A DNA stretch of 64,000 bases from a virus (IMGVR_UViG_3300032516_000007:51042-115041); one strand, 5' to 3'; positions 18,809 through 40,904 are shown, counted from the stretch's first letter. Notes: generated by a model not told the origin, from the letters alone. Numbers and translations: made by a program.

Positions 18809-18837
18809 TTGACACTTGATTCTAGAACCAGTAGTTT
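18809..18837 (+). promoter_or_regulatory. sigma70-type promoter with TTCTAGAA in the spacer
   Basis: TTGACA-17 nt-TAGTTT, intergenic, upstream of the protease gene. Confidence 0.6.
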
Positions 18838-18868
18838 CATCCTGACGATCAACCTGAAGGAACTCCAC

Positions 18869-18902
18869 AAAGGGAGATGGGCATGAGCCCCTCTCCCTTT
18901 TT
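18869..18902 (+). terminator. intrinsic terminator-like hairpin in the protease gene leader
   Basis: AGGGAGATGGGC-ATGA-GCCCCTCTCCCT followed by a T run. Confidence 0.6.
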
Positions 18903-18914
18903 GCGTTTGGGACT

Positions 18915-19796
18915 ATGATCTTAGATCTCCTCAAAAGCAACGAGTTTGAGTTCTGGCTTCCCCTGGACATTTGCAAGTCCAATGGGAAGGCTGATCCAAC
19001 GAAGCGTTGGGTCCAGGGACTTGCCTCTACAGAAGATCGAGATCTTCAGGATGAGGAAGTCTTTCAGCGTGGGATCGACTTCAGTTACTTCCTAGAGCAT
19101 GGCTACTACAACAATGATCATAAGCTTGGGTTCGAGAACAAAGTTGGCCAGCCTGTAGAAGCTAAGATCACTCCTGAGGGTTTTTGGACCAAGGGGTTCT
19201 TGTTCCAGAACCACAAAGTAGCTGATGCGATTTGGGAGCTGGCTCACGCACTGATCACCTCAGGTGCGATTCGTCGTCTTGGCTTCTCTATTCAGGGGAA
19301 GGTTCTGAGACGAGCAGGAAAGCGCATTCTGAAGTGTTGGGTTCAAGATGTTGCGATCACCGCTGCTCCGATCAATACCCACACCTGGTTGGACGTTGTG
19401 AAGTCCCTCTCAGCCGTTCCGGCTGAGATGTGGTGTGAGAGTGAGAGCGGGCTACTGATGCCTGAGGATGTGGCTACTTCGATCCCCTGTGTCAAGTCTT
19501 GTGGGGGTGGTTGCTGCAAGAGCGAAAATAAAGCTCTCCGTCAGGAAGATCTTAACCTCTTCAAGAAGAGAGATGAGGAAGAGGAAGAAGCCAAGGCTCT
19601 GTCCATTGGGTATGGACATCCCATGGCTCCAGAGAGCTTGGACAGCGAAGTCAAGCGGCAGACGTTTGGCAAGTCGATCCCGGAAATTCTCAACTTCCGT
19701 GACTGCGTGTACCTTCTTCAGGACACACGGGGTCTTTCAAAATCTGAAGCAACAACGTTGACTGAGGCGATCTTCGCAATGAACGAAGTGAACTGA
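18915..19796 (+). CDS. prohead (capsid maturation) protease
   Basis: VQGLASTEDRDLQDE, GIDFSYFLEHGYYNNDH, LGFSIQG, VAITAAPIN motifs; located before scaffold and capsid genes. Confidence 0.9.
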   Translation: MILDLLKSNEFEFWLPLDICKSNGKADPTKRWVQGLASTEDRDLQDEEVFQRGIDFSYFLEHGYYNNDHKLGFENKVGQPVEAKITPEGFWTKGFLFQNHKVADAIWELAHALITSGAIRRLGFSIQGKVLRRAGKRILKCWVQDVAITAAPINTHTWLDVVKSLSAVPAEMWCESESGLLMPEDVATSIPCVKSCGGGCCKSENKALRQEDLNLFKKRDEEEEEAKALSIGYGHPMAPESLDSEVKRQTFGKSIPEILNFRDCVYLLQDTRGLSKSEATTLTEAIFAMNEVN

Positions 19797-19833
19797 TGGT
19801 CATCAACCGAAACTCAACCGGAGGGAACTGAAG

Positions 19834-20778
19834 ATGTCGAAGATGACGAAGCATGACTTCTTCAAGTCTCTGGAAAGGTTGGAGGCACTTGCCGGTGGCA
19901 GCGGTGACGAAATGCGGAAGTCGCAGATTGTCACTGGTGGCAACAGTGAGGTCTCCTCCTGGCCAGGTGGCGAGAAGGAAAAGATCGGGGACAACTGGGA
20001 CGACAGCATCGGTGAGGACGGAACCGACTACAAGGCCCAGAAGGTTCGGAAGAGCATCATCGAGAAGGTTGCGAAGGGTATTGCTCTGTCCCCCTCCGAG
20101 GTGGAGATCCTCAAGGGTGACATGGACCGAGCTGAGCCCTTCGGTGGCAAAGAGTCTCCTGAGGAAGAGGAGGCCGAAGAGGAAGCCAAGGAGAAGACCA
20201 AGGGCAAGCGTCGTCCTCCCCCCAAGGAAGAGGAGGACGAGGACGAGGGAGCCAAGGGCAAGCTTTTTGGCAAGTCATTCACCGACGTTCTCTCTGAGAA
20301 CGATACGGTCCAGAAGGGTGTCGAGGTGTCGGACTTCCTCACTGAGTTTGCCAAGTCCTTTGGGCATGGTCTCGATCACCTGGAGTCCCGGATCACGGAG
20401 CGAGTGGTTGGGACCGTCATGGGTGCCCTTCAGCAGTTTGCTGGGGAGCAGGGGAACTTCAACAAGTCCCTCGCCGAGGCGGTGGTGAACATCGGTCATG
20501 GTCTCGCTGGCTACATTCAGCAGGATGCAGCTCGGAGCGAGGAGCCTGCGGGTCCCCCGAAGTCTCAGCTTCGGACGGTTCCTGGTCAGGTGAATGTGCT
20601 TCAGAAGAGCCAGGGTGGTGGTCCGTTCGAGGGCATGAGCAAGGCTCAGGTTCTTGATCGGATGACTGATCTGGTGGAGAAGGGCGGTCTCAATCCCCTG
20701 GAGGTGGTGAAGTACGAGTCCACGGGAGAGATGTCGCCTCACATCGAACAGAAGCTCATGAAGAGCATGGGGCAGTAG
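19834..20778 (+). CDS. capsid scaffolding protein
   Basis: Between protease and capsid genes; charged and helical; 13 hydrophobic-x-K|[AGS] motifs. Confidence 0.75.
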   Translation: MSKMTKHDFFKSLERLEALAGGSGDEMRKSQIVTGGNSEVSSWPGGEKEKIGDNWDDSIGEDGTDYKAQKVRKSIIEKVAKGIALSPSEVEILKGDMDRAEPFGGKESPEEEEAEEEAKEKTKGKRRPPPKEEEDEDEGAKGKLFGKSFTDVLSENDTVQKGVEVSDFLTEFAKSFGHGLDHLESRITERVVGTVMGALQQFAGEQGNFNKSLAEAVVNIGHGLAGYIQQDAARSEEPAGPPKSQLRTVPGQVNVLQKSQGGGPFEGMSKAQVLDRMTDLVEKGGLNPLEVVKYESTGEMSPHIEQKLMKSMGQ

Positions 20779-20808
20779 CCCCTCAACCCCAGACACAGGA
20801 GAAAGATC

Positions 20809-22257
20809 ATGTTTGGACAGATCAGCCTGCGTCACTACGAGGGGCTCAACGGTTTCGGGACTGCTCCCGCCCAGGACGTGTCAGAGTTGCACAAGGCGTT
20901 GGAGGCTGGCTATCAGGTGACTGGCCAGACCGGCGGCTCTGCACTCAGGGTGGAAAGTCTTGAGGCCAGCCTCAAGGTGGTGACGTGGACAAACCATCAC
21001 ATCAAGTTCTGGAAGAAGATTCCGAAATCGCCAGCATTTTCGACGGTTGAGGAATACAATGAGCTAGTTTCCTACGGAGGAACGAATTTCGCCTTTACGC
21101 AAGAAGGCGAACTTCCTCCTTCGACGGATACGAACTACGCTCGTCGTACCCAGCTCGTGAAATTCCTTGGGACCACTCGTGAAGTGAGCCACCCGGCCAC
21201 GATGATTCATCCCGCCCACGGGGATGTGATCGCACTCGAAAACTCGAACGGCATTCTCTGGCTGCTCGAGAGGGTTGAAACGGCTCTCTTCACCGCTGAT
21301 TCCGCGCTCGCTTTCGATGGTGAGGCTGAGCAGTGGGATGGTCTCGATGCTCTGATCGATGGCACCTCCTACGTCGATCTGGAGGGACAGCCTCTCCAGG
21401 AAGCGGACGTGGAAGAGGCCAGCAACATCCTTGTCGAGCACTTTGGTTACCCGACGGATCTGTTCTTGGGAACCCGTGAGCTGAGTGATCTTGTCAAGAC
21501 GATGTATCCTCGCGAGCGCGTGGCTCTGCCCGCTCCCGTGAATGGGGTCATCGGACAGGCAATCAACTCCATGGCAACCCAGGCTGGTACCATCGAGTTC
21601 AACCCCAACGTCTTCGTCAAGCGTCTTCCTCGTCCGCCCGCGTCGGCAACGCACGCCAATGCTCCTGCGACTCCGCAGGTCGTGGCGGGTCTTTCCAGTG
21701 CTGGTGGTACGGCTCTTGATGGTGACTTCAATAAGGGAGCCCCAGCGGGGACCAACTACCTCTGCTACGTTTGCACAGCGTGCAATCGTTTCGGAGAGTC
21801 GTCTCCTTCTCCGGTCATGGGCGCAGCGGTGACGATGATTCAGGCAAACAAGGACGCCAACGAGCACATCGATCTCACGCTGACCAACGCTGCAACCATC
21901 GGAGCTTTCCCTCCCGAGTTCTTCCGTGTGTACCGTACCGTCTCCAGGACTGCGGCTGCGGTTCCTGCTGATCTGGCACTGTACAGCATGATCATGCAGG
22001 TGCCTGCTGCTCTCCAGGGTGGTGGTCAGGTTACCACTCCTGATGACGTGAACTTCCTGCTGCCCTTCACCAGCCTTGCTTACATGGGAGAGCTGACTCC
22101 GCAGGTGATCACGTTCCGGCAGCTTGCTCCGATGATGCGTCTAGATCTCGCGGTGCTTGCTCCTGCCTACAGGTGGATGATCATGCTTTACGGAACGCCC
22201 ATCCTGTTCGCTCGGAAGAAGTGGCTGCGTATGATCAACATCGGTCGTCTCACGTAG
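20809..22257 (+). CDS. major capsid protein (Herelleviridae-like)
   Basis: ELHKALEAGY...GSALRVESLEASLKVVTW, STVEEY, QLAPMMRLDLA, ILFARKKWLRMINI resemble Twort/A511 capsid proteins; strong codon bias. Confidence 0.92.
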   Translation: MFGQISLRHYEGLNGFGTAPAQDVSELHKALEAGYQVTGQTGGSALRVESLEASLKVVTWTNHHIKFWKKIPKSPAFSTVEEYNELVSYGGTNFAFTQEGELPPSTDTNYARRTQLVKFLGTTREVSHPATMIHPAHGDVIALENSNGILWLLERVETALFTADSALAFDGEAEQWDGLDALIDGTSYVDLEGQPLQEADVEEASNILVEHFGYPTDLFLGTRELSDLVKTMYPRERVALPAPVNGVIGQAINSMATQAGTIEFNPNVFVKRLPRPPASATHANAPATPQVVAGLSSAGGTALDGDFNKGAPAGTNYLCYVCTACNRFGESSPSPVMGAAVTMIQANKDANEHIDLTLTNAATIGAFPPEFFRVYRTVSRTAAAVPADLALYSMIMQVPAALQGGGQVTTPDDVNFLLPFTSLAYMGELTPQVITFRQLAPMMRLDLAVLAPAYRWMIMLYGTPILFARKKWLRMINIGRLT

Positions 22258-22294
22258 AGGCGCATTTCCGGTGAAGGTCAGAATCTGACCTTGT

Positions 22295-22340
22295 GAGAGT
22301 CTGGGGAGTGTTTTTGGATGCTCCCCAGACTCTCCTTTTT
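22295..22340 (+). terminator. intrinsic terminator after the capsid gene
   Basis: GAGAGTCTGGGGAG...CTCCCCAGACTCTC followed by CTTTTT. Confidence 0.8.
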
Positions 22341-22383
22341 GAGACCATGAACCTGGTATTCAGGTAGAGAGACAAGATCCATA

Positions 22384-22968
22384 ATGGATTGCATTGTTTG
22401 TGGGAAACCAGTTCAGATTGTCGGAGCAGATACATGTAGCACCCGTTGCATGCTTCGACCTAGGGGAAATGCAGGTGAGAAGAAAGGACTGGCACCCAGT
22501 TCTGTTTTTTCGATCATGGGGAAGCTGACTCAGGCGTCTCTTAGGCAGCCCCCACTAGAATCGGAGGTTCCAATGCTGAAGGTAGCTCACCCTTGGATCA
22601 AGAATCGTAACGTCATTGAGGGGGAGACGGTCTTCTCGTTCAATGGGGATGGAATCGCTGTGGTGAAGGATCTTGGGAATGCTCGCGTGGATCTTCAGCG
22701 GTTGATGAAGAAACCAACGAGTAAGTTCTCCATTCTTGAGGACCCGAGGGAAGTTCCCAAGGTTGAAGTTCCTGTTCTCAAGGTTGAGGCTCCCAAAGTT
22801 CCCGTTTCCAAGATCGAAGTTCCCTCTACCGAGATCGAAGCTCCTGCTTCCGAGGTGTTCACTTCGACGGTTCTAGAATTAACAGAGCCAGAGGAGGAAA
22901 CCACATCGGAGGTTGAGGACAAGGCAACCAAACGAACCCCCACCAAGAAGAAGAGTGGCGGCAAGTAA
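22384..22968 (+). CDS. hypothetical protein with (K/E)(V/I)E(V/A)P repeats
   Basis: True start may be ATG 22573 (GGAGG RBS). Confidence 0.6.
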   Translation: MDCIVCGKPVQIVGADTCSTRCMLRPRGNAGEKKGLAPSSVFSIMGKLTQASLRQPPLESEVPMLKVAHPWIKNRNVIEGETVFSFNGDGIAVVKDLGNARVDLQRLMKKPTSKFSILEDPREVPKVEVPVLKVEAPKVPVSKIEVPSTEIEAPASEVFTSTVLELTEPEEETTSEVEDKATKRTPTKKKSGGK

Positions 22969-22980
22969 AGGAGAACAGTC

Positions 22981-23250
22981 ATGGCGACCATCAAGACTCG
23001 ACCCGTCATCGGCGACAACGGATCTCAAGAGCTGGCTCAGCTTCGTGAGAGCTATAACGCTCTGGTGCAGGTGGTTGGTGATCTGATCACCTCCCTCAAG
23101 GGCTCAACTGACGTGCCCTCCATCGTTGTCATCGTCACGGCTGCGGAGCTGGTGATTCAGAACACCGTGGAGAAGATTGGCACCCAGCCAAATCTGGGCC
23201 TGAATCCTCTCAGACCCGATCTGCTTCCTAGCACGCTCAGGATTCCGTAG
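22981..23250 (+). CDS. hypothetical virion protein
   Basis: AAGGAG RBS; position after the capsid gene. Confidence 0.65.
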   Translation: MATIKTRPVIGDNGSQELAQLRESYNALVQVVGDLITSLKGSTDVPSIVVIVTAAELVIQNTVEKIGTQPNLGLNPLRPDLLPSTLRIP

Positions 23251-23369
23251 AGGAGAGATCAAGTTCGATTGTTTTGCTTCAAGATCCCAACGCTGTCATG
23301 TAGCGTTCGGCCATGTGAAAACTTCAATGTGCCCCTCCTACCTATGGGGGCTTTGATGAGGAGAATCAA

Positions 23370-23696
23370 ATGTTCAAGCCAGGCATTCCCGTGCATCCTT
23401 CCAGTGGGATTGGAACAGCTCCGAATGCAGCCACGACCCCTCAGGGGATCGAGATATCATTCGACAAGGGTTCCAATCGAAACCGGCAGAGCACTTCCCA
23501 GGTGATCATTTCCAATCTTGAGGCGGCGGTAGGGGGCAATGCTCTCGAGGTGAGCTTTGCCAACGGTCAGGACGGGAAGTGGTTCAGCATTCCTCCGGGG
23601 CAGACGGTACCCATCAATGTGATGACGCATCGCTGCAATGTGAGAGGGAAAACTGGAGCGACAACTGCCTACTCCATCATGGGGATCATATCCTGA
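23370..23696 (+). CDS. hypothetical beta-rich virion protein
   Basis: GAGGAG RBS, 108 aa. Confidence 0.65.
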   Translation: MFKPGIPVHPSSGIGTAPNAATTPQGIEISFDKGSNRNRQSTSQVIISNLEAAVGGNALEVSFANGQDGKWFSIPPGQTVPINVMTHRCNVRGKTGATTAYSIMGIIS

Positions 23697-23714
23697 TGAT
23701 GAGGGAGGGCAGAT

Positions 23715-24020
23715 ATGATCCTCCAACCTGTCGGAAGAGGAACGTCGATCAATGTTCTGCTGGGGAAGTTCCGGTGGAACAAGGAGCTGATTGGACCAAA
23801 GAACGGAGTCAATGTCATATTCACAACGCCTGAAGTTTTCATTCAGAGCGGAGAGACTGTGATCAGGGTGTACCGCAACGGACAAAGGTCGTACCTGGGA
23901 GTGTCTAATGACTACACCGTATCAGAGAGCGGTGGTCCTGGTACAGGGTTTGACACCATTACGCTGGCTGTAGCCCCATTGGGTTACGAGATCATAACCA
24001 CCGATTACTTGATCAATTAA
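23715..24020 (+). CDS. small beta-sandwich virion protein
   Basis: VYRNGQR...NDYTV...TITL motif, similar to the C-terminus of the next gene (VYLNGELL). Confidence 0.6.
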   Translation: MILQPVGRGTSINVLLGKFRWNKELIGPKNGVNVIFTTPEVFIQSGETVIRVYRNGQRSYLGVSNDYTVSESGGPGTGFDTITLAVAPLGYEIITTDYLIN

Positions 24021-24036
24021 CCCGAAGGAGAGAGAA

Positions 24037-26052
24037 ATGGGACGCACCTTCATCCGTCAAGCAGTACAGATCGCACCGTCGGACTACGCCGCAACACCCA
24101 GTGGGTACAACGATAGTGTCGCCCCAACGCTGGCCAACTACGAGAGCACCCGTCCAGCCAATCTGGAGGATGACCTCAACTCGCTCCGGTCGCAGCTCAA
24201 CAACCTGTTGAACCGAAATGGGGCAAGCTTCCCCAGCGGCCCCAAGTGGTACGAAGATCTCGTGCAGCCCACCGCACTCGAAAACGGCACCATCCGTGGT
24301 GTGGATGCCACCAACGCTGCTTTGCATGCAGTCGAGAAGAAGCGCGTTCTGCGTGATGTCTGGAAGCTCCTGGACATCTACCCTGGACTCGATCTGTCGA
24401 TCTTGCTCGTCAACGATCTCAGGACCAAGTACGAGGCCCACCGAGTTCTGGTCGGTGGTGGTCCTGTTCACGGCTCTGCTGACGCAACCAACACCATCGC
24501 GGCACCTGCGGCGACCAACCTCGCCACCGCGATCACGCTGGCGAACGACATCAAGGCCAAGTACAACGCGCACCGCGTGGACGTGTCTGGGGCTCCTGCG
24601 ATCCACGGTCTGGCCGACACCACCAACGTCGTCTCCTCGGCAAATGCGACCAACCTGGCCACGCTGATCACCCTCATCAACGAGATCAGGGTTGACTACG
24701 AGGCGCACCGGCAGCTCATCGCTGGTGGTGTCCACACCGTTGCGGACGGAACGAACATCGTGACGGCACTGACCGTCGGTTCGACCACACAGGTCCACAT
24801 CTTCACAGCAGCTCAGCTTCCTCTTCAGACCCTCGCGGCCATTGGAGCAGTCACGACGCTGGGTACGGTTGCTGCGCAGGCCACTGCCTTCGGCACTGCT
24901 GGGCTGGATGAGGTCGTCAGCACTTCGGACGTGAACCCGAAGAACATGATGCAGCTCGTCGATGCCGCGAACCACCTCGACCCGATCCTGGTCGGTGGCA
25001 AGCAGTTGTTCGCGCTGTTCCAGACGGAGAGTGCCACCGACGGATCCACCATGACGGGAACTACGCCCAACAGGGCGCAGCTCTCGTTCGTCGTGCGCAA
25101 CAACACAGGCGATGATCTGGAGCTGGTGTCGGTGCCCATCGGGCAGGGCATCAACTTCGCAACGCGCGAGCGCATGCGCCTTGAGGGACTCGACGAGCAG
25201 GACTTCTTGAAGGGAGCCACCGTTGAGTTCCCGGCCTCGACCACCGTCACTCGCCAGATCGGGTATGACAACCAGGGTGTCACTCCGGTTGAGATGGCGA
25301 CCAACAGCTACCTCGATCTCGGAACCGGGCTTGAGTGGACCCTCCGCGATGTCCTCAACGCCGCGCTGCTTCGTGTCATTGAGGGTTCGCCGTCTGCCAA
25401 CACCATTCAGCTCACCAGTGAGGTCGATGTTTTCGACATCAACGCTGTGCTGAATGACTTCCTCAACGGTGCCAGCTTCGACACTGGTGCTGCGGGCACC
25501 ACGATCAACGTCGGTGTCACTCCCAACCAGATCGACGCGGGTGGTCCTCTCACTGTGGCCTCGGGTGGCTCTGGTGATCTGAAGCTCGACGCGGCGAACG
25601 AGGTTCTGTTCGACGACGTGAACCGGACTGGTGCTGGCTGGACGGCTACCTCGGTCAAGCTCTCCGACACCACGCAGGAGTGGATCGACTATCGCACCGA
25701 GTTTGGCGAGGTCTCGATCTTCAACGCGCTCTACCAGGCGAAGACGACAGCGAAGCGTGTCAAGGGTCAGGCCAAGCTCGTTGCCAACCGCGCTGCGGGC
25801 CTCGATGTTGACAAGACCACGACGAGCATTCTCGATGTCGATCTGCCGAACTTCGCTGCTGTCGGCACCTTCGTCGATGACGTCGATGTCTACCTCAACG
25901 GCGAGCTGCTGCGCAACGAAGCCTCGTACCCTGGAACCGAGGACGTGGCTCCTGGATCGACTCCTGCGCAGGGCATGCTCAAGTTCGAGTTCGCACTCAG
26001 GGGCACTGGAAGCAAGCCCGATCAGTTGTCGATGATCGTGTGGGGTAGCTAG
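24037..26052 (+). CDS. virion structural/fibre protein with His-pair repeats
   Basis: 671 aa, A/T/G/V-rich, strong codon bias; three Y(E/N)AHR...H..AD.TN repeats. Confidence 0.7.
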   Translation: MGRTFIRQAVQIAPSDYAATPSGYNDSVAPTLANYESTRPANLEDDLNSLRSQLNNLLNRNGASFPSGPKWYEDLVQPTALENGTIRGVDATNAALHAVEKKRVLRDVWKLLDIYPGLDLSILLVNDLRTKYEAHRVLVGGGPVHGSADATNTIAAPAATNLATAITLANDIKAKYNAHRVDVSGAPAIHGLADTTNVVSSANATNLATLITLINEIRVDYEAHRQLIAGGVHTVADGTNIVTALTVGSTTQVHIFTAAQLPLQTLAAIGAVTTLGTVAAQATAFGTAGLDEVVSTSDVNPKNMMQLVDAANHLDPILVGGKQLFALFQTESATDGSTMTGTTPNRAQLSFVVRNNTGDDLELVSVPIGQGINFATRERMRLEGLDEQDFLKGATVEFPASTTVTRQIGYDNQGVTPVEMATNSYLDLGTGLEWTLRDVLNAALLRVIEGSPSANTIQLTSEVDVFDINAVLNDFLNGASFDTGAAGTTINVGVTPNQIDAGGPLTVASGGSGDLKLDAANEVLFDDVNRTGAGWTATSVKLSDTTQEWIDYRTEFGEVSIFNALYQAKTTAKRVKGQAKLVANRAAGLDVDKTTTSILDVDLPNFAAVGTFVDDVDVYLNGELLRNEASYPGTEDVAPGSTPAQGMLKFEFALRGTGSKPDQLSMIVWGS

Positions 26053-26058
26053 TTCATC

Positions 26059-26099: not shown

Positions 26100-26120
26100 T
26101 CCCTTAAACAGGAATGAGCG

Positions 26121-28453: not shown

Positions 28454-28456
28454 CCG

Positions 28457-30926: not shown

Positions 30927-30927
30927 G

Positions 30928-30956
30928 AGAGGGTGGTTCTAGAATCATGGTATACT
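30928..30956 (+). promoter_or_regulatory. extended -10 promoter with TTCTAGAA upstream
   Basis: GGTTCTAGAATCA-TGG-TATACT, intergenic. Confidence 0.5.
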
Positions 30957-31271: not shown

Positions 31272-31681
31272 ATCCAAAGGATGATCCTACTTCTGTTGGG
31301 TTGATCTTAATCAAAATGGGAGTAATCACCAAGGAGGATTTGGTTGCTGCTATTGATGAGCAGGACAATTCTAGTATTGAGTACCTTTTAGGTAAGTTAT
31401 TGGTTGCTAATGGGGTGTGCTCCAAGGAGCAAGTTGAGATTGCTTTGGCAGCTCAACAAGGAATGAGAAGCAATGAAGATCATAAGAAGGCTGTGGCTAT
31501 AGCTTCCATTGCCACAGCTCGGAAAAAGATGATGCGTCAGGCAGGTCAGCACATGATCGAAAGAACTGATGCTTTGGCTATTAAAACAGGAAGTGATATT
31601 TATCCTGTGGTAGTTATGAAAATGAATCTAGTAGGTGGCGGGAAGAAGGGATCAGATTCAGGTAATGGAGCGGGTGCGTGA
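31268..31681 (+). CDS. MshEN-like domain protein
   Basis: Tandem VGLILIKMGVITKEDLVAAIDEQ and LGKLLVANGVCSKEQVEIALAAQ match RLGxxLxxxGxxxxxxLxxxLxxQ except for the Arg. Confidence 0.7.
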   Translation: MNPKDDPTSVGLILIKMGVITKEDLVAAIDEQDNSSIEYLLGKLLVANGVCSKEQVEIALAAQQGMRSNEDHKKAVAIASIATARKKMMRQAGQHMIERTDALAIKTGSDIYPVVVMKMNLVGGGKKGSDSGNGAGA

Positions 31682-32106
31682 CGTTCTCTATTCGCATCCA
31701 GTCTGGAAAGAAGGAGCCTATTGCTGTTCTGATTCTAAATCAGAGCGGGCAGGAGTTAACTGGAAAGACTGATATCAAGATTAAGATTCGTCGTATTAGT
31801 GATGGGTTCTACCTCGACTGGTCAGATAACACATTCAAGTCGGCTGTCTCAGTGGTGATATTGCTTCAGGTGTTGCAGGAGATCTCAGCATTATACAGCC
31901 CAGGGGAATACCAACTTAACAAACCAGGTCACATAAACGGATTTGATACTTTAACGATCACCAATCCCAACAGTGATGATACTTACTACGTTACGGGTAT
32001 CCAGGATGGTGGGGTTGATGCAAGCAACGTTCCGATGGTAGGTGAGCTGAAGGTTGGCGACTACGTTGATGACATCGTGGAAGATCGACTGCCAGTGGTT
32101 TGGTAG
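31678..32106 (+). CDS. hypothetical virion protein
   Basis: 142 aa beta-rich; PGEYQL resembles AGVYEI in the next gene. Confidence 0.6.
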   Translation: MTFSIRIQSGKKEPIAVLILNQSGQELTGKTDIKIKIRRISDGFYLDWSDNTFKSAVSVVILLQVLQEISALYSPGEYQLNKPGHINGFDTLTITNPNSDDTYYVTGIQDGGVDASNVPMVGELKVGDYVDDIVEDRLPVVW

Positions 32107-32121
32107 CTGAAGGAGTGAGCC

Positions 32122-32757
32122 ATGGCGTGCATTGAAGTCCTCCAAGGAACCCCAACGTGGCTTCCCTTCATTGCCACGAACATCAACACGGGTGCTCCTC
32201 GAACTGGGATCACTTTCAACCAGGTGGATGTCTCCTACAAGAAGAGCAGCCAGGCGACCTTCAATCTCAAGACACTCCTGGTCACCGACTTCCGTGAAAA
32301 CGGTGCTGGGGTCTACGAGATTCTGTTCTCCAACACGGAACTGAATGTTCTGGGATCATTCCTCTATGTGGTGATCGGGAATGGAGCCCTCCCAAGCCCC
32401 AACATCCGTCAGTTTGTGGGGCAGGCTTTCGTTGAGACAGCTTCTTCCTACACCCCAGGCACGATCAGTCTTGACACCAACATCATCACAGGCAACCTGA
32501 TTGATCTTCATGGAGACCCTCTCCCTGGGGTGGCTGTGAGTGCCCGTGTGCTCTCGGCTCCAACGATCTTGGGCGTTACCCCCAACATTGGTGGAGTGGG
32601 AGTGGATATCTACAGTGCCAAGACAGATGAGGCTGGATTCTTTGCCTTGGAATTGCTTCAGAAGGCTGTGGTGGATGTGTCGATCCCAAGGGTGAACTAC
32701 CGTCGAACTTTGACCGTGCCTGTGAACTCAACGGACAAGCTGTTCGATATTCCATAG
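32122..32757 (+). CDS. Ig/prealbumin-like beta-sandwich virion protein
   Basis: ITGNLIDLHGDPLPGVAVSA...KTDEAGFFALEL pattern. Confidence 0.65.
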   Translation: MACIEVLQGTPTWLPFIATNINTGAPRTGITFNQVDVSYKKSSQATFNLKTLLVTDFRENGAGVYEILFSNTELNVLGSFLYVVIGNGALPSPNIRQFVGQAFVETASSYTPGTISLDTNIITGNLIDLHGDPLPGVAVSARVLSAPTILGVTPNIGGVGVDIYSAKTDEAGFFALELLQKAVVDVSIPRVNYRRTLTVPVNSTDKLFDIP

Positions 32758-32766
32758 AGGAAGACC

Positions 32767-34167: not shown

Positions 34168-34175
34168 TCAAGGGC

Positions 34176-34204
34176 TAGCCGTGGTTCTAGAACTGACATA
34201 TAAT
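34176..34204 (+). promoter_or_regulatory. promoter with TTCTAGAA in the spacer
   Basis: TAGCCG-17 nt (TGGTTCTAGAACTGACA)-TATAAT, intergenic. Confidence 0.55.
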
Positions 34205-34224
34205 ACGGGGCTTAGAAGCCAGCC

Positions 34225-35061
34225 ATGACCAAGACCAGGGACGAAGGAACTCAGCTTTTCAGTGCTCCCCGTGGGAGGAACGTGGGGCTGGGTATTGACT
34301 TCTCTCCCGGATTTGGGGCTCACGAAGGATTGATCAACAATCGTGGAGAGGATGTGATCCACGATGTTGGTATGCGCTGCCCATGTAGTGCTGAGGATGT
34401 CCACGCTGGTCAGATTGAACAGAACCAGGTCCCTCGTCGGCGAAGTATGATTGGCTGTTCTCTATGTCGAGGTGAGGGTTACATTTTTCGTCGTCCTCAG
34501 AAGATCTGCGCCCTGATCACCGGCATTTCAGAATCTAAGACCAGGATCGAGGGAGGATGGGCTCAGCCTGGCGATTGCATGATGTCCCCTCATGCTGGTT
34601 ACATGATAGCTTCTCACGACATGATCACTTTCCTTTGGCCTCAGCCAGTAGGGGATGGGCAAGTGATCGTGAGGGGTGCAGGAACCGCTAGCGACAACAG
34701 CCAGAGGGAAACATTCCTTCAAACTAATGAAGATCGACTTTGGTACAGCGCAACTGAGGGGATCTGGTGTGAGGGAGATGACGGTGTGCGTTACTATCCA
34801 GAGGGAGATTTCCTTTTGGATGGAAGCAAGATCATAAAGTGGGTGGGGAATCAACCACAGGTGGGTCAGTCATATGTTCTCAAATATGCTGCCTACCTGG
34901 AGTGGATTGTTTTTGATCCTCCGGCTACACGAAGAGATCGTAATCGTGATCTTGGTTCTAGAGTCGCTCTGCGAAAGAGGCATGTGGCGTTGGTCAACAA
35001 TGACCCAAGGCCCAGAGTGGGGGACAACATTCCCTTCTGTGCCAGAATTCAGAACTGCTGA
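34225..35061 (+). CDS. head closure/stopper neck protein
   Basis: MRCPC ... CSLCRGEGYIF signature; synteny. Confidence 0.7.
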   Translation: MTKTRDEGTQLFSAPRGRNVGLGIDFSPGFGAHEGLINNRGEDVIHDVGMRCPCSAEDVHAGQIEQNQVPRRRSMIGCSLCRGEGYIFRRPQKICALITGISESKTRIEGGWAQPGDCMMSPHAGYMIASHDMITFLWPQPVGDGQVIVRGAGTASDNSQRETFLQTNEDRLWYSATEGIWCEGDDGVRYYPEGDFLLDGSKIIKWVGNQPQVGQSYVLKYAAYLEWIVFDPPATRRDRNRDLGSRVALRKRHVALVNNDPRPRVGDNIPFCARIQNC

Positions 35062-35645: not shown

Positions 35646-36700
35646 GTATCGTTCCCGAATACATCATTCAGCAGGTACTTGTGAAAGGTTTCCGCGCCAT
35701 TCGCGATGATGGTCGTATTGTGGATATGCTCTTTCGTAATCTTCGTCAAGATGATCTTGACAAGTTGCGTACCTTTTTTCAAGAGTCCACTATCGATATC
35801 AACTTGAACTATCCTGATCAAGATCTTCATCTTCCAGCAATAGTGATCCTGCTGAAATCCGAAGCTGAGAGCCAAGCCTTTGTTGGCAATTTGATGGAAG
35901 GCCCCCAGATGGTGCGTTCACTGGGGCATCCTTTCCCTAAGGATGAATTGCGAGGGGATGCCACGGTTCTGGGAGCTGGTTCTGTGTCAACCACGGGTGG
36001 GGGCTACAGGACCTATCTTTCTCCCACCAAAGCCACAAAGGGAGAAGATGCAGCGGTTCACATCGCTGAGGGTTTGATCAAAGTGGTAGATCCTTTCGAG
36101 GAGGATGTGTTTGTTGTCATCCTTGAGGGAACAGGAGCTGGGCAGACTCGTCAGATCATCATGATTGATCCTGTGGGAAGTGGGTTTGATTCTAAGATCA
36201 CTGTCACTCCTTCTTGGGCTACGAATCCGGATAACACCTCTGTGATTGAAGTTCGAACAGCTCCAGATCAGTCTGGAGTAACAGGAGAACCATCCAAGCT
36301 GTTCACGTCTCAGGATATCATTGAGCGGAGGGGTGTTATCTATCAGACTACCTACGATCTTTTGATTGTGGGCTCAAACCCAGAAACAACAGTCTTTCTT
36401 TACAGTGTAGTGAAGGCTCTTATCTTCCTTAACGAACATTTCTTGATCAAACAAGGATTCATGAATCTGGCCATGTCAGGAACGGACTTCTCTCCACGCA
36501 CGGAGTTCTACCCTGATTTGGCATATCAACGGGCTTTGTCTTTAACGTTTAGCTACTCTTTCGATATTTACCAGAAGGCGTCGGAGGCATCCCTCATTGA
36601 TAAGATCACAGTGGGGTTGGCAGTTCATGATCCTGATGTTGATGACTCGGAAGATCCAGGTCGCACAGTGATCGAAACCACTTTGGACCTGACACCATAG
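35642..36700 (+). CDS. tail terminator protein
   Basis: INLNYP...LPAIVILL, LYSVVKALI, AYQRALSLTF; insert domain shared with the sheath. Confidence 0.6.
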   Translation: MSIVPEYIIQQVLVKGFRAIRDDGRIVDMLFRNLRQDDLDKLRTFFQESTIDINLNYPDQDLHLPAIVILLKSEAESQAFVGNLMEGPQMVRSLGHPFPKDELRGDATVLGAGSVSTTGGGYRTYLSPTKATKGEDAAVHIAEGLIKVVDPFEEDVFVVILEGTGAGQTRQIIMIDPVGSGFDSKITVTPSWATNPDNTSVIEVRTAPDQSGVTGEPSKLFTSQDIIERRGVIYQTTYDLLIVGSNPETTVFLYSVVKALIFLNEHFLIKQGFMNLAMSGTDFSPRTEFYPDLAYQRALSLTFSYSFDIYQKASEASLIDKITVGLAVHDPDVDDSEDPGRTVIETTLDLTP

Positions 36701-36710
36701 GAGAACTGCA

Positions 36711-36947
36711 ATGGCAAAGACACCAAGTAAAGATTTGACCAATGCTGGTCCTCCCGTGGCCAGCGTCGAGGAGAAGGTTGAGGCAGTGGCTGAGCCTGTT
36801 CTGGAGACAGAGCAGCCAGTGTCATTCAGTCGGTGGTTCGCAGCTAAGGGTTTTCGGGCTCACTGGAAGGATGGAATGGCAGCGTTCACCAACACCACCA
36901 TCAAACGAACCATGTCCGATTGGGACAGGACGTTCAAAAGCTACTAA
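36711..36947 (+). CDS. small hypothetical protein before the sheath
   Basis: AGGAG RBS, 78 aa. Confidence 0.65.
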   Translation: MAKTPSKDLTNAGPPVASVEEKVEAVAEPVLETEQPVSFSRWFAAKGFRAHWKDGMAAFTNTTIKRTMSDWDRTFKSY

Positions 36948-36959
36948 GGAGAGGACACC

Positions 36960-39530
36960 ATGGCAAGGTCCGTCACATTCAATGGAATGACCCAGTTTCG
37001 GCCAGGTGGACTCACCAAGGTCGATGCGAGTGCTCTTGCTCAGATCAGTTTGGCGACCAATGGCATCATCGGTCTGATCGGTGAGGCTGATGGTGGGGAA
37101 CCGGGGGTGGTGGTCACCCTTGATGATCCTGCTTTGGCTAAGTCGGCTTTCCGCAGTGGCCCCTTGGCAGATGCCATTCGGGTGGTGTTCGATCCCTCAA
37201 ATGATCCTCGAGTTCCCGGAGGGGCTTTTCGATGCCTCTGTGTGAAGGCCAATCAGGGAACTCAGGCATCCCTGGTTCAGTACAACAAGATCGGAGCAGA
37301 TACGGCTGCGGCTGGTTCTACAACCACGCTCATCAACCTGACCACAGGTGCATTGGTTGCCAGTGAGATGATCGGAAACATCCTTCGGATTGGTGCGGAG
37401 GATAGACCCATCACTGCCAACGCAGTGGCTACGATCACGGTGTCTCCTGCGTTCTCAGCAGCTCCTCTGACAGGAACTGCATTGACCATCTTGGCTCCTG
37501 TGGCGACGGTCAAGTCTAGAGACTACGGACTGCACACGAATCAGATTCAACATGAGTACGAGCCTGGCGCGTCTTCGGGTCAGGCGTGGACTACCATGTT
37601 TGACAAGGTGGCTCAGATTGGGGAGGACATCGGTGGGAAGTCCTATCTCCAACTGGAGTACATTGGTCAGTCTGCTCGCGTGGTGACTGCTTCTGGAACT
37701 GCCTCAGGTGGTTCTGGAACCACCATTGTGGATGCCACAGCCACTTTCACAGGGATGATCAATTTCTTTGTGGAGATCACTTTGGCTGGTGTGATCAACC
37801 TTAGGAAGATCTCACTTACCACTCCAGCTACGACTCTGACTGTTTTGGCAATGAGTGGTACTCCTGTGGCAGAAGCGTACAGCGTCAGGAAGGGCCAAGT
37901 CCGAAACGGAACTGCCACGGCTGGTGGTGCTTCTACGATCACTTTGGAAGTTGCTCTCAACCTGGCTCTCAATGACATGGCTGGGCTGATTGTGGTCATC
38001 ACTGGTGGTACTGGTTCTGGTCAACGACGGTCCATCACTTCCAATACGGCTGGTGTGAGTTCAGTTCTCACGGTAGATCAGCCTTGGACTACCACTCCTG
38101 ATCTCACCTCCACCTATGAGATTCGCTATGCAACAGCGGCTAAGGCGACTCTTGCAGGATCACTAGGGAAGGCAACATCTCTCAAGACCTACGTGGCAGT
38201 TAACGGTGCCGTGTCAGGTCTTGACAAGACCTTCACGTTTGCCACCAACCAGACATTGGAAGAGCTAGTCGCAGCTATCAACGCCAACGTGGACTACAAG
38301 GCAACTGTCCCTGGTGGGATCAATGGCAATACCTTCTTGGTGAAGGATTTTGACTTTGATCTTGGGGATGTGGATGTGGACATTCGCAGCGACAAGGATG
38401 CAGTGGCCACTCCTCCTACTCCCACTGCCAATGTCCCTGTTCCATGGGCCAACAATTTCCGTGCTGATCTGTGGGTGATGATCCGGGACATCAACGAGAG
38501 GAATCAGAATGTCATTGCCACTCGTGCCTCTGGAATCAGCAAGGGAGCTGGCCAGGGTCGTCCCGAGTTCACTGGTGGCAGCATCGGAAACCCAGGGGAC
38601 ACCTTCAAGTACCTCACAGGTGGAACGAGGGGGACCAGTGCCAACTCCAATTGGCAGGATGCCTTTGATCTGTTGCTCAAGCAACGATGCAACTTCGTGA
38701 TTCCCCTCATCGTCCGTGATCTTGTTGAGGAGGACCTTGGATCAACGGCTACCTGGTCCTCAGTGTCTGCCCAGCTTTCAGCACACGTCAAGGCTGCCAA
38801 CGGGATCGAGAAGACAGAGCGTGGTGGTGTCATTGGGTATCGTGGCACCAAGACCAATCTGATCTTGAAAGCCAATGCCCTCAACAACACGGACATCCAG
38901 ATCGTCTCTCAGAAGCCCATGTGTCTGGATGTGGGGGGCACCCTGAAGGTGATGGATGAGTGGGCCATGGCAGCTCTGGCCGTGGGCATGCGAGCTGGAA
39001 TGCCTGAGGTGGGTGAGCCTCTGACCCACAAGTACCCCAAGACCACAGAGATTGCCCAGGACAGCAGTTGGGACCCCTCGGAGAGGACGGATGCCAACCA
39101 GTTCATCCAGGCTGGTATCCTCTTCGCGGAGACGATCAAGGGCAAGGGCATTCGCTGGGTGCGGGACATCACCACGCATGTTCAGGATGACAACCTTGCC
39201 TACATGGAGGGAAGCGTTCGTGATGTGGTTCGCTTCGTGTCCTATGGTCTTCGCACTCTACTGGAAGATCGATTCACGGGCGTCAAGGCCACCCCCACCA
39301 ATGCCACAGGCATCAAGGACACAGCTTCGGAATACCTGGAGCTGGCTCGGTCCCAAAACCTCATCGTGGACAGCACTGACGAGAGAGGTGCTGTCATCAA
39401 GGCATTCCACAATCTGCGGGTGAAGATCAGCGGAGACGTTGCAACCATCCGAGTAGAGATCTTCCCTGTGGTTGGGATCAATTTCCAACTCAATGAAATA
39501 TTCTTGCAGCTACCAACACAGGCTGCATAA
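36960..39530 (+). CDS. contractile tail sheath protein
   Basis: VTFNG..QFRPG, IIGLIGEADGGEPG, FRSGPLADAI, GEPLTHK, IRWVRDITT, PVVGINF. Confidence 0.9.
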   Translation: MARSVTFNGMTQFRPGGLTKVDASALAQISLATNGIIGLIGEADGGEPGVVVTLDDPALAKSAFRSGPLADAIRVVFDPSNDPRVPGGAFRCLCVKANQGTQASLVQYNKIGADTAAAGSTTTLINLTTGALVASEMIGNILRIGAEDRPITANAVATITVSPAFSAAPLTGTALTILAPVATVKSRDYGLHTNQIQHEYEPGASSGQAWTTMFDKVAQIGEDIGGKSYLQLEYIGQSARVVTASGTASGGSGTTIVDATATFTGMINFFVEITLAGVINLRKISLTTPATTLTVLAMSGTPVAEAYSVRKGQVRNGTATAGGASTITLEVALNLALNDMAGLIVVITGGTGSGQRRSITSNTAGVSSVLTVDQPWTTTPDLTSTYEIRYATAAKATLAGSLGKATSLKTYVAVNGAVSGLDKTFTFATNQTLEELVAAINANVDYKATVPGGINGNTFLVKDFDFDLGDVDVDIRSDKDAVATPPTPTANVPVPWANNFRADLWVMIRDINERNQNVIATRASGISKGAGQGRPEFTGGSIGNPGDTFKYLTGGTRGTSANSNWQDAFDLLLKQRCNFVIPLIVRDLVEEDLGSTATWSSVSAQLSAHVKAANGIEKTERGGVIGYRGTKTNLILKANALNNTDIQIVSQKPMCLDVGGTLKVMDEWAMAALAVGMRAGMPEVGEPLTHKYPKTTEIAQDSSWDPSERTDANQFIQAGILFAETIKGKGIRWVRDITTHVQDDNLAYMEGSVRDVVRFVSYGLRTLLEDRFTGVKATPTNATGIKDTASEYLELARSQNLIVDSTDERGAVIKAFHNLRVKISGDVATIRVEIFPVVGINFQLNEIFLQLPTQAA

Positions 39531-39588
39531 GAAATTAGCTACCGACGCAGGCAGCGTAGTTAGCTAGAAACCAAAAGGAGAAGAAGTC

Positions 39589-40659
39589 ATGGCAATCGCG
39601 ATTCCGGCTCTGATCGATACTCAACTGACTGCGTTTCGAACCTCGATGCAACCAAAGCAGGATTCTGTCACGAAGACTGAATCCTTCGTGGTGGCCCCAG
39701 GAGTGCTTGGCAACCGAGCTGCTGATCTTCTGGACATCCTCGCGAATCTGGTTGATGTCACGGGTCTGGTGACGACTGGCACCCATGTGGCTGCTGATGC
39801 AGCCAATGGTGTGTCATCGCCAACCGCAACCAACCAGGCCACCGCAGACACGATGGCTGATGAGATGAAGGGTGACTACAATGCCCACCGTGTTGTGACC
39901 CCTGCGGTCCATGGGGCAGCGGACGCCACCAATGTGGTGACAGCTCTGGGCAGTGATGGGAGCGAGGCCAGGCTGGTTCTGCTGGCCAACGACATTCGAG
40001 TCCAGGTGCTTGCTCACATGGCTCGTGTGACCACTGCTACGCATGGTGTGGCTGATCCAAATGTGGTCACGGTGGCAGCCTGTACCAACACTGCGACGGC
40101 AGTCACTCTCATGAATCACCTGAAGCTGATCTACAATGCTCACATCGCGAACATCAACGGTGTGAGTGCCACTGGCGTTGCTGATCTTGGTGCCTACACG
40201 GGGGTGAATGCTCTCGTGGGAGCCAAGGTGACGTTCACGGGGAACATCACGACAGCTTTGACTGGGAAGTACGCCTTTGTGATCTCCAACACGACGGGCG
40301 TTCTTTACTTCGCTCCTGGATCACTTCCCGCCTCGCCCAGAACTGGTGACACCTATTCGGTGGAGTTCGCAGCCATCGATAAGGATCTGGCGGCACTGAG
40401 GGGTGGCAAGGGTCTTGGGGACAGCGCATCGAATCCCTACGGTCCTGGTCCCTCGCTCATCAACGCTCTGATGGTCATGATCGCCCAGCTTGGGGGAGCG
40501 GTTCCCTCCTACCTGACTGCCGTGGCAGCTCAGCCGTTCGGGATTGGGAGTCCCCATGCAGCCAACCCGTCGGGTCGTGGGTCAGCAGCCATGATCCTCA
40601 TGGCTGAGGCCATGCTGGCGGCTAGAGACACGGTGGCTGCCTACACCAAGCCTGCGTAG
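39589..40659 (+). CDS. virion structural protein with His-pair repeats
   Basis: YNAHR..VHGAADATN repeats shared with the 24037..26052 protein; AAGGAG RBS. Confidence 0.65.
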   Translation: MAIAIPALIDTQLTAFRTSMQPKQDSVTKTESFVVAPGVLGNRAADLLDILANLVDVTGLVTTGTHVAADAANGVSSPTATNQATADTMADEMKGDYNAHRVVTPAVHGAADATNVVTALGSDGSEARLVLLANDIRVQVLAHMARVTTATHGVADPNVVTVAACTNTATAVTLMNHLKLIYNAHIANINGVSATGVADLGAYTGVNALVGAKVTFTGNITTALTGKYAFVISNTTGVLYFAPGSLPASPRTGDTYSVEFAAIDKDLAALRGGKGLGDSASNPYGPGPSLINALMVMIAQLGGAVPSYLTAVAAQPFGIGSPHAANPSGRGSAAMILMAEAMLAARDTVAAYTKPA

Positions 40660-40699
40660 TTCCTGATAAACTTCAAGCTGATACTCTTTGTTCGCCAGC

Positions 40700-40729
40700 T
40701 TGACAGTGGTTCTAGAACTAACGTAGACT
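40700..40729 (+). promoter_or_regulatory. sigma70-type promoter with TTCTAGAA in the spacer
   Basis: TTGACA-18 nt-TAGACT upstream of the tail tube gene. Confidence 0.65.
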
Positions 40730-40761
40730 CGATCTACCTGTTGTCCACCAGGCCACAGGCT

Positions 40762-40801
40762 TGGCCCCCCAGCGGTCCTCGACTTCTGGGGGGCCATCTT
40801 T
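40762..40801 (+). terminator. terminator-like hairpin in the tail tube leader
   Basis: 11-bp perfect stem TGGCCCCCCAG/CTGGGGGGCCA followed by TCTTT. Confidence 0.5.
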
Positions 40802-40904
40802 CCAGAAACGTGCTCTGGTTCTGACCAGACCTCACGGTCAACCTTCGGCACGTTCGAAGTTCACAGATCGAAATCAACAACAACTTTGAATAGGAGCTAC
40901 GTTC

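Follow-up and report, generated by a model that had tools for sequence, protein, structure and literature searches.

We analysed a palindromic DNA element, with TTCTAGAA as its exact core, in a 64,000-nucleotide stretch of virus DNA (hereafter the window), which comprises bases 51042-115041 of the 115,041-bp virus contig IMGVR_UViG_3300032516_000007 (CheckV completeness 68%). Some copies of the palindrome sit in the spacer between the -35 and -10 hexamers of late promoters, and the same spacer element recurs at three orthologous promoters of the window phage and its relatives: those of the head protease, of the module beginning with gene 34225, and of the tail tube. This recurrence marks the spacer as the conserved position of the palindrome. 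At the head promoter, 18809-18902 appears from its sequence to carry the full cis triad of a Q/AlpA unit, and we regard Q-like antitermination as a plausible, tentatively held account of how the head operon is licensed. The capsid protein is 40-44% identical to the capsid proteins of SPO1-like Bacillus phages, so the finding concerns the structural module of an uncultured SPO1-like myovirus. Coordinates are those of the window, except that those prefixed with g follow the numbering of the contig.

A spacer palindrome, a candidate pause element and a terminator at the head promoter

18809-18837, + strand: head-operon promoter, with TTGACA at 18809-18814, a 17-nt spacer holding TGATTCTAGAACCA (18817-18830), and TAGTTT at 18832-18837
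18844-18849, + strand: GACGAT, a -10-like hexamer and candidate sigma-dependent pause element; it begins 6 nt past the -10, at about +1 to +6
18863-18902, + strand: head leader, with CTCC at 18863-18866, an A-rich linker, GGGAG...CTCCC at 18872-18897, and TTTTT at 18898-18902

The hairpin at 18872-18897 (GGGAGATGGGC/GCCCCTCTCCC) has a folding energy of -19.3 kcal/mol, TTTTT follows immediately, and the ATG of the protease gene at 18915 lies 12 nt past the terminator. With a G/C-rich stem-loop and a U run, 18872-18902 has the form of an intrinsic terminator, as does g7377-7406; the whole head leader folds at -30.8 kcal/mol (z -4.0). There is no room for another promoter between the terminator and the protease gene, and in relatives the T run ends 10-25 nt before the ATG, so transcription of the head genes must pass the terminator. 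The order of stop codon, promoter, terminator, and gene is the reverse of a plain operon boundary and would call for conditional read-through.

The candidate pause element is overlapped by CGATCAACCTG (18846-18856). The initial annotation had pointed to CGATC(A/T)ACCTG at 18846 and 40730, and these are indeed the only exact copies of CGATCWACCTG in the window, where six copies with at most one mismatch are found against 2.1 expected. Two other readings of the leader were tried and rejected. In the fold of the window sequence, CGATCAACCTG is the upstream strand of a helix that would mask the protease start codon, but 33 leaders gave a mean z of -0.05 and none fell below -2. The hairpin might also have been a fixed-spacing promoter for a phage sigma factor, of the SPO1 middle-promoter kind; among relatives, however, the spacing between GGGAG and the T run ranges over 19-32 nt and the stems covary, so it is a hairpin.

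Conservation of the spacer element and leader in relatives

Searches anchored on the major capsid protein (MCP) gave 64 IMG/VR loci and 80 metagenome loci, on contigs that are partly shared between the two sets; the G+C content of these clade loci ranges from 36% to 62%. For the head promoter, we compared 65 non-redundant protease-upstream regions. A TTGACN-16/18-TAnnnn promoter is present in 46 of the 65, in 40 cases together with a GGGAG...CTC[CT] leader. In 36/51 regions, one hairpin with a folding energy of -12 kcal/mol or lower ends at a T run. The leader comprises a nearly invariant CTCC, an A-rich linker of 4-8 nt, and AAAGGGAG...CTCCCTTT as the A-tract/U-tract base of the terminator. 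This stem base is invariant; the inner stem differs from lineage to lineage, and the one alignable inner pair shows a two-sided change in 13 of 31 rows. A joint change of the upstream word and of the 5' and 3' arms (CTCT/GAGAG/CTCT) is seen in L037.

The position of the spacer element is exact. Among the 65 protease promoters, six lineages hold an exact copy and three a copy with one mismatch. In the window, L385, L366, L006, L157, and L016/L044, exact TTCTAGAA is separated from the -35 by 5 nt and from the -10 by 4 nt; in L016/L044 a second promoter overlaps the first. L014, L036, and L038 have one-mismatch elements, L017 has TAGTCTAGACTA, and L004 has an indel variant. Scans of the sequence collections with TTGACA-N4/5-TTCTAGAA and with TGGTTCTAGAACCA gave single matches per contig, L157 being the sole true relative among the matches listed.

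Promoter spacers are normally not conserved. In the alignment of the head promoter and leader from a sub-clade of nine lineages (A5), the majority fraction is high in the -35 (0.94), the spacer (0.80), the -10 (0.83), and the leader word (0.90), and lower in the inner stem (0.58) and the initially transcribed stretch (0.43). The spacer is thus conserved above the adjoining transcribed leader, a point in favor of the Q/AlpA-like reading below. The window, L385, L366, and L006 all share GACGAT at 6-7 nt past the -10, with variable bases on either side. In L044:7070-7165 (the same in L016), two TTCTAGAA copies 66 bp apart lie around the head promoter, and the -10 of the second overlapping promoter (TTGACA-18-TATAAT) abuts or overlaps the downstream palindrome. 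As a separate observation, the head-leader terminator stem of the distant relatives L024, L025, and L026 includes TGGTTCTAGAAG, probably by coincidence.

A possible Q/AlpA-like route to the head genes

How might these elements work together? In a Q/AlpA-like mechanism, the structural genes would be read from host-type, sigma70-like promoters whose 17-18-bp spacer would be the binding site of a phage-specific factor; the site is two-fold symmetric with the half-site TG[G/A]TTC, and the factor would therefore probably be a dimer. RNA polymerase would start at about 18844, sigma would re-bind the -10-like GACGAT, and the polymerase would pause. The spacer-bound factor, now just behind the polymerase, would load onto it, and the modified polymerase would read through the terminator at 18872-18902 into the protease, scaffold, and capsid genes. 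Unmodified polymerase, as well as polymerase arriving from the upstream cargo operon, would stop at 18872-18902. We infer the pause, the loading, the sign of regulation, and the nature of the factor from the observed elements and their geometry, from their conservation in relatives, and from the selection on the palindrome described below. Late-gene control in lytic phages is usually positive, and the near-complete host-type promoters followed by a terminator fit the loading of an antiterminator better than classical activation.

The lambda Q gene lies directly upstream of the late promoter, and here too a small gene lies directly upstream of the promoter. According to PMC9371919, Q proteins need a promoter binding element and a -10-like sequence in the initially transcribed region, and AlpA acts as a single molecule that reads GGGACG (ABE, an asymmetric 6-mer) between the -35 and -10 of PalpB, a promoter that depends on CACGAT at -1 to +5 and is followed by an intrinsic terminator that is bypassed. 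Lambda pR' has AACGAT at +1 to +6 (PMC4005639). The lambda Q system of pR'-tR' resembles the head promoter in its host-sigma promoter with an embedded element, NACGAT at the transcript start, promoter-proximal terminator, and late genes; AlpA/PalpB of Pseudomonas aeruginosa (PMC9371919, PMC7969949) resembles it in the element between the -35 and -10, the -10-like hexamer, and the downstream terminator. The corresponding parts here are TGATTCTAGAACCA at 18817-18830, to which a factor would bind, and a terminator upstream of the regulated genes, which is present for the head operon and not clearly so for the tube. In contrast to lambda, the element here is a perfect palindrome present in about 46 copies, no protein of the Q families was found in six frames of the contig, and the phage is SPO1-like rather than lambdoid; moreover, some 30 nt separate the terminator from the start, the first gene follows 12 nt later, and the leader has a family-wide invariant RNA word. 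The AlpA system differs in that the ABE is asymmetric and read by a single AlpA helix-turn-helix (HTH), whereas the element here is a dispersed palindrome and no Phage_AlpA match was found.

Several findings weigh against a Q/AlpA-like mechanism. First, the element is a symmetric 14-mer, unlike the 6-bp asymmetric ABE. Second, a Q loader needs no set of about 46 copies with 22 selected inside genes, and the dispersed copies lack a -10 and mostly lack a hairpin (present at 4/36). Third, GACGAT, found in four lineages, is absent from five of the nine A5 lineages, and xAxxxT hexamers elsewhere occur so often that they carry no weight. Neither a pause-like hexamer nor a proximal terminator is present at the tube, 30937, and 34185 promoters, and the tube promoter has no xAxxxT hexamer. 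The leader terminator and its invariant CTCC...GGGAG word also occur in relatives without the palindrome (38 with another spacer), and the retention of the word without the palindrome points to an RNA-level factor. Furthermore, the placement in L016/L044, with a -10 overlap and copies 66 bp apart, is operator-like, and a -10 may also be overlapped at g41908. Finally, a six-frame search of the contig, which is 68% complete, with the four Q/AlpA families PF05930, PF06530, PF03589, and PF06323 returned nothing at E <= 1; given the sequence diversity of Q proteins, a non-homologous analogue may exist. The earlier proposal of Q/AlpA-like licensing is thus supported in part, for the head promoter (spacer element, GACGAT, and terminator), but not as a general account of the palindrome sites.

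The palindrome is dispersed and under selection

TTCTAGAA is the core of a 14-bp palindrome, TGR-TTC-YR-GAA-YCA, beyond which there is no conservation. The window contains 17 exact copies against 0.77 expected; because none of 100 shuffles reached 17, chance is excluded. Their start positions, over the span 1053-61113, are as follows.

Exact copies, first part of the window: 1053, 2616, 7940, 11204, 18820, 22871, 30937, 34185, 40710
Exact copies, rest of the window: 42943, 46045, 51264, 53458, 54453, 58086, 60876, 61106

Across the 115-kb contig there are 36 exact copies, and TTCTAGAA is the most over-represented 8-mer of the genome (z 36.7). The degenerate 14-mer is found 12, 14, and 20 times in the contig at 0, 1, and 2 mismatches (0, 0, and 2.1 expected), a total of about 46, and 28 copies within two mismatches of TGRTTCYRGAAYCA lie in the window. 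A common variant has TG or CA at its center, which leaves the arms TGGTTC and GAACCA as the essential part. Variation in one half-site is independent of that in the other: the flanking pairs (left base, complement of right) are G,G in 10 cases, G,A in six, A,G in six, and A,A in three. A protein dimer reading duplex DNA would fit independent half-sites better than a hairpin would, and an RNA or DNA hairpin is disfavored on these grounds.

In the + strand model of open reading frames (ORFs), 11 of the 36 contig copies fall between genes; the other 25 are within ORFs and use only the two frames in which no TAG stop arises. The 97 ORFs of at least 100 codons hold 22 intragenic copies, compared with 1.32 +/- 1.09 (maximum 5) in 200 synonymous-codon shuffles. 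This excess rules out that the intragenic copies are a by-product of Leu-Glu or Ser-Arg coding and indicates that they are selected at the nucleic-acid level. In addition, 15/36 copies are at most 110 nt upstream of a + strand ORF start, a zone that makes up a fraction of 0.152 of the genome (P ~1e-4); these include the replication-gene junctions g7344 and g10802.

The degenerate motif has a density per 10 kb of 0.55 in L001-L064, 4.4 in the window, and 6.2 in L068, a twin contig 97% identical to the window. Exact copies in relatives number one in 25 kb, three in 32 kb, four in 51 kb, and one in each of two 18-kb records. Genome-wide spread therefore appears, on this comparison, to be peculiar to the window phage, a secondary expansion for which titration or roadblock functions can be proposed. 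The spacer of late promoters is the conserved place of the element, and probably the ancestral one: since the spacer position is kept at three orthologous promoters in phages with few copies, the promoter role is the conserved one. The idea that each relative has a dispersed palindrome of its own was discarded, the enriched words of relatives being mostly tandem coding repeats; AGATCT in L071 occurs only 10 times against 3.8 expected.

Could the palindrome instead be the operator of a dimeric repressor? This dispersed-operator explanation is the main rival, possible but doubtful. The repressor would block RNA polymerase in spacers or over the -10, the dispersed copies would be roadblocks or a titration sink, and the head terminator would be a separate, family-wide attenuator opened at the RNA level, for example by a Zn-ribbon protein acting on CUCC-(A-rich)-GGGAG. 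A symmetric site with independent half-sites is what such a repressor would read, and the roughly 46 copies, the selected intragenic ones, and the enrichment upstream of ORF starts, g7344 and g10802 included, all agree with it. So do the L016/L044 arrangement, with one of its two copies over a -10, and the possible -10 overlap at g41908. Conservation of the leader and of the Zn-ribbon gene without the palindrome suits a repressor combined with RNA-level control, and the joint change in L037, together with weak similarities of the Zn-ribbon protein to RNA-binding zinc ribbons, suits an RNA-level attenuator. However, no repressor, integrase, or partition gene was seen in scans of the 68%-complete contig, and SPO1-like phages, the type indicated by the capsid, are usually virulent. 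Relatives hold the site only at late promoters, whereas late-gene-specific repressors are, to our knowledge, rare. The repressor also leaves the invariant GACGAT at +1 without explanation, and the CUCC:GGAG helix proposed for the attenuator is 4 bp long and near-invariant, with covariation from one or two lineages.

A precedent for such a repressor is offered by the operators or 'stoperators' of cluster A mycobacteriophages (PMC9283540). Phage L5 has one short site more than 20 times through its genome, at promoters and elsewhere, with a proposed stop of both initiation and elongation. The L5 sites are asymmetric 13-mers, monomer-bound and orientation-dependent, in short intergenic gaps of temperate phages; in contrast, the window phage has a symmetric site with 25/36 copies in ORFs, no lysogeny genes seen, and close relatives without dispersal. 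It thus shares with L5 the many genome-wide copies (36 exact, about 46 degenerate) but not the asymmetric site, the monomeric repressor, or the temperate lifestyle, which counts against membership in that class and not against a similar way of working. Neither the Q-like nor the repressor reading explains why only the window phage multiplied the site.

Two further regions bear repeated words. L061 (21,974 nt) has a dispersed asymmetric word of its own, TAGGAATA, in 11 copies on both strands (z 17.5), and its protease-promoter spacer holds the near copy TATTCCTG; this may be an analogous system with a different site. Upstream of the window, L066:12530-13200 (contig 31530-32200) is a repeat-rich non-coding stretch of about 0.7 kb with runs of CATACATACA, repeated CCCTACCCT(G/A)CCC words, and two palindromes 66 bp apart (g31891, g31957), with g30917 and g31457 within 1 kb. 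This stretch could be an origin or a control region.

Promoters that carry the palindrome

18820-18827, + strand: palindrome of the head promoter, with the -10 TAGTTT at 18832-18837
30937-30956, + strand: promoter-type site without a -35, with TTCTAGAA (30937-30944), 6 nt, and TATACT (30951-30956), upstream of a lineage-specific block of small genes (from 30975)
34185-34204, + strand: promoter-type site, with TTCTAGAA (34185-34192), 6 nt, and TATAAT (34199-34204), upstream of virion gene 34225-35061
40700-40729, + strand: tail-tube promoter, with TTGACA at 40700-40705, an 18-nt spacer holding TGGTTCTAGAACTA (palindrome 40710-40717), and TAGACT (40724-40729); 10/12 matches

The initial annotation had placed the palindrome 4-6 nt before a -10 at these four sites, and all are present, with gaps of 4, 6, 6, and 6 nt. 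Although all four are real, they form a small subset, since most of the 36 contig copies are not at promoters. TAnnnT occurs exactly 6 nt downstream of 4/36 copies (g40297, 30937, 34185, and 40710), against 0.27 expected per offset and one on the mirror side. Looser -10 definitions add g7344, g37722, and 18820 (gap 4) to this promoter class, whose members fall between genes of the ORF model or, for g37722 and g40297, within nothing but short, doubtful ORFs some 50 codons long. The remaining copies, about 29, have no -10. The promoter scanner lists the 40700 site and omits the 18809 site, where TAGTTT matches 3/6.

An unusually strong hairpin, below the 5th percentile of 400 random sites, lies downstream of 4/36 copies. 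This rules out that palindromes are generally trailed by hairpins and limits the palindrome-terminator pairing to two or three sites: g7344, 18820, and 40710. The same architecture does exist elsewhere in the genome, with g7344 as a third instance, but most copies lack a -10 or a hairpin. At contig 7344-7406 (L065), the palindrome is followed after 6 nt by TAGATC and then by the intrinsic terminator g7377-7406 (-29 kcal/mol, TTTTTTT); it stands directly after a stop codon, before a Zn_ribbon_8 ORF and a DNA polymerase gene, and has no recognizable -35. At g41908 (TTGACA-17-GATTCT), the palindrome would itself act as the -10; this site is a candidate only, its -10 matching 3/6 and the scanner not listing it.

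Orthologous sites are found in part. The 34185 site is identical in L068, and G006, the 51-kb record of L390, has TCGACA-ggt-TTCTAGAA-ccaggc-TACAAT in the gap upstream of its orthologue of gene 34225. For the gene downstream of the 30937 site, no orthologue was found in relatives.

A fixed distance of 4-6 nt between palindrome and -10 at five to seven sites could also reflect a classical activator of initiation, which would bind the palindrome at late promoters and offset weak or missing core elements, the hairpins lying outside its regulation. We consider this improbable. In its favor, the sites without a -35 have a near-consensus -10 (TATAAT, TATACT), those with TTGACA have a weaker one (TAGTTT, TAGACT), and the position is kept at three orthologous promoters. 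The geometry, however, is not diagnostic, because a 14-bp site has nearly no positional freedom in a 17-18-bp spacer, and the 34185 site, '-35-less' in the window, has an orthologue in G006 with TCGACA at a spacing of 17 nt. Promoters of the MerR type have their dyad in an over-long spacer of 19-20 bp; the spacers here are 17 and 18 bp, and scans of the contig proteins gave no match to the MerR family. Moreover, an activator accounts for neither the intragenic copies nor the promoter-then-terminator order.

The tail-tube promoter and its structured leader

40730-40904, + strand: tail-tube 5' untranslated region (5'UTR) of about 170 nt, with the 5' hairpin word CCTGTTGTCCACCAGGCC, a G/C hairpin, and the helices ACGTGC...GCACGT and TGACC/GGTCA

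In each of the 10 closest tube loci, the word CCTG(T/C)TG(T/C)CC(A/G)CCAGGC comes after a TTGACN-17/18-TA(G/C)nnT promoter. Among the orthologous promoters, those in L390 and L392 have the form TTGACG-taac-TTCTAGAA-ccag(t/c)-TAnnnT, and that in L395 carries TTCTGGAA; L391, L394, L396-L398, and L401 have other spacers.

A G/C hairpin and T run had been described after both TTGACA promoters, which is borne out in the head leader but not at the tube. There, the hairpin at 40762-40796 has 10-11 G/C pairs, and its tail, ATCTTTCC, is not a proper T run and falls short of the U run of an intrinsic terminator; none of the tube-locus leaders compared has a real U run after its hairpins. The G/C hairpin keeps its place with a lineage-specific sequence, including a compensatory C>G/G>C pair in L068, and the downstream helices show compensatory changes in 9/23 consensus pairs. 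The 175-nt leader folds at -67.5 kcal/mol (z -5.0). These features would be better explained by a conserved structured 5'UTR that acts in stability, processing, or translation than by a Q-type terminator. The pairing of the head and tube sites as one system, as first proposed, is therefore only partly upheld: they share the promoter and palindrome, but the tube lacks the U-tract and the pause hexamer.

A near copy of the tube-leader word, ACCTGTaTGTCCACCAGGCC, is present on the minus strand at contig ~29750-29790 (L066:10750-10790), with a 7-bp inverted repeat at its flanks. This copy lies inside a + strand ORF (...FGLVDIQV...) and may be a coincidence.

The tube leader also bears on the view that there is no coupled switch at all. 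On that view, 18872-18902 would end the upstream cargo operon, the tube hairpin would stabilize the 5' end of the mRNA, and the palindrome would have a non-transcriptional DNA function (genome organization, packaging, or modification/nicking), with some copies in promoters by chance. A tube hairpin without a U-tract is in line with this view, and most copies lie away from promoters; g7344, between a stop codon and a strong terminator (-29 kcal/mol) and lacking a -35, and a weak match to DUF1931, a histone-like protein, can be added. Still, we think it has little chance of being right. The spacer position is kept at three promoters in phages without dispersal, the spacer is more conserved than the adjacent leader, and the promoter stands upstream of the terminator in 40/65 relatives, an order opposite to that of a simple operon boundary. 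The contig protein scans gave no methyltransferase or nickase.

Candidate regulators

18530-18775, + strand: 81-aa Zn-ribbon ORF, directly upstream of the head promoter

The initial annotation offered two nearby candidates for the factor that binds the palindrome. The first, the Zn-ribbon gene, was detected by tblastn in 50/64 MCP-anchored loci, always just upstream of the promoter and leader. Residues C9, K15, C40, C43, and P50 do not vary and C7, K23, R25, and K27 hardly do, giving four cysteines and a basic patch of K15, K23, R25, and K27; the AF2 model (pLDDT 82.9) is a small all-beta fold. Pfam searches gave generic Zn-ribbon hits only (E >= 0.0003) and no informative family match, and structure searches were equally uninformative (best PDB profile E 0.028, best Foldseek E 0.23, best VIA-align Z 2.8). 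A search of 50,697 phage records returned no match; from metagenomes, the family has 112 members, none with a Pfam domain. Weak similarities to S27e and Rpr2, as well as the automatic names given by JGI, point to RNA-binding zinc ribbons.

The presence of the gene follows the invariant leader and not the variable spacer, although the eight loci that lack both gene and leader are kin and not independent evidence. Because it tracks the leader, the Zn-ribbon protein is regarded as a candidate for an RNA-level role there rather than as the binder of the palindrome. The upstream CUCC could pair with the GGAG of the terminator base and so block the stem beside the U-tract. This alternative CUCC:GGAG helix of 4 bp almost never varies, and its covariation is limited to L037 and L058. 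BglG/SacY-RAT antiterminator leaders and N/boxB RNA sites likewise have a short conserved RNA element that lies 5' of the terminator stem and overlaps it; the pairing of CUCC with GGAG at the terminator base and the adjacent small basic protein are further points of likeness. Points of difference are that the helix here is limited to 4 bp, that no CAT/PRD or N-like protein is present, and that RNA binding is putative.

The second candidate, a 'sigma-like domain', amounts to a sub-threshold 12.4-bit match inside a 1162-aa polyprotein and was set aside. A wider look for Q or HTH proteins returned none of the Q/AlpA families but did return weak HTH candidates for the palindrome binder: a winged HTH protein with a coiled coil (g34019-34414, PHROG_1123, E 2e-16) and an HTH/sigma-r4-like protein (g29050-29718). 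The winged HTH protein could not be tied to the palindrome, since a 51%-identical homologue is present in G011, whose promoters lack the element; it has no relatives in the viral contig collection. A 56-aa ORF at 60329-60499 has a weak match to PF16805, a phage late-transcription coactivator family (E 0.043, 1/73 proteins), which is at chance level.

Wider meaning of the proposed head-gene switch

Late timing in large virulent myoviruses is usually attributed to phage sigma factors or co-activators. If Q-like licensing of the head operon is true, the logic of lambda Q and AlpA also operates, through non-homologous parts, in an unrelated group of phages that is widespread in the environment. 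The expansion of a promoter element to about 46 selected copies would also be a natural case for how the site set of a regulator grows. To the picture drawn by the initial annotation, the present comparison adds spacer conservation at three promoters, lineage-specific dispersal, a candidate pause element, a family-wide leader terminator with its Zn-ribbon gene, and a structured tube 5'UTR.

A more far-reaching version, unlikely as a whole, is that this family of SPO1-like myoviruses switches on its head genes by antitermination instead of a phage sigma factor, using parts without known homologues: a strong host-type promoter, a CUCC-(A-rich)-GGGAG leader terminator, and a syntenic, RNA-binding Zn-ribbon antiterminator of 70-85 aa. 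One sub-clade would have added a palindromic, dimer-bound 'QBE' in the spacer and a sigma-dependent pause site, and one phage would have multiplied the element about 46-fold as a genome-wide timer or roadblock.

Neighboring genes and other observations

18915-19796, + strand: head maturation protease (PHROGs/Pfam)
19834-20778, + strand: scaffold protein (PHROGs/Pfam)
20809-22257, + strand: major capsid protein (PHROGs/Pfam)
36960-39530, + strand: tail sheath (PHROGs/Pfam), with baseplate genes farther downstream
40905-42375, + strand: tail-tube gene, with its ATG at 40905, split by a group I intron at 41026-42006

All plausible genes of the window are on the + strand. Between the sheath gene and the next gene, L068 has about 690 nt extra (8485-9198 in that contig), compared with 39529-39554 in the window. 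The tail-tube gene was not found in the L157 and L016 records. Its intron matches Rfam RF00028 with 44.5 bits (E 1.3e-9), below the gathering score of 50, and holds a LAGLIDADG homing-endonuclease ORF at 41079-41987 (Pfam PF03161, 7.3e-24). Tube exons 1 and 2 are contiguous in L391 and other relatives, as expected of an intron, and most loci have a gap of 34-37 nt; the gaps of 366 nt in L392 and 1909 nt in L425 may be other insertions. On the 3' side of the tube gene, ORFs 42431-42922 and 42717-43220 overlap and resemble a frameshifted pair of tail-assembly chaperones, with a weak match to PHROG 25000, and the palindrome copy at 42943 lies in the extension part of this putative pair.

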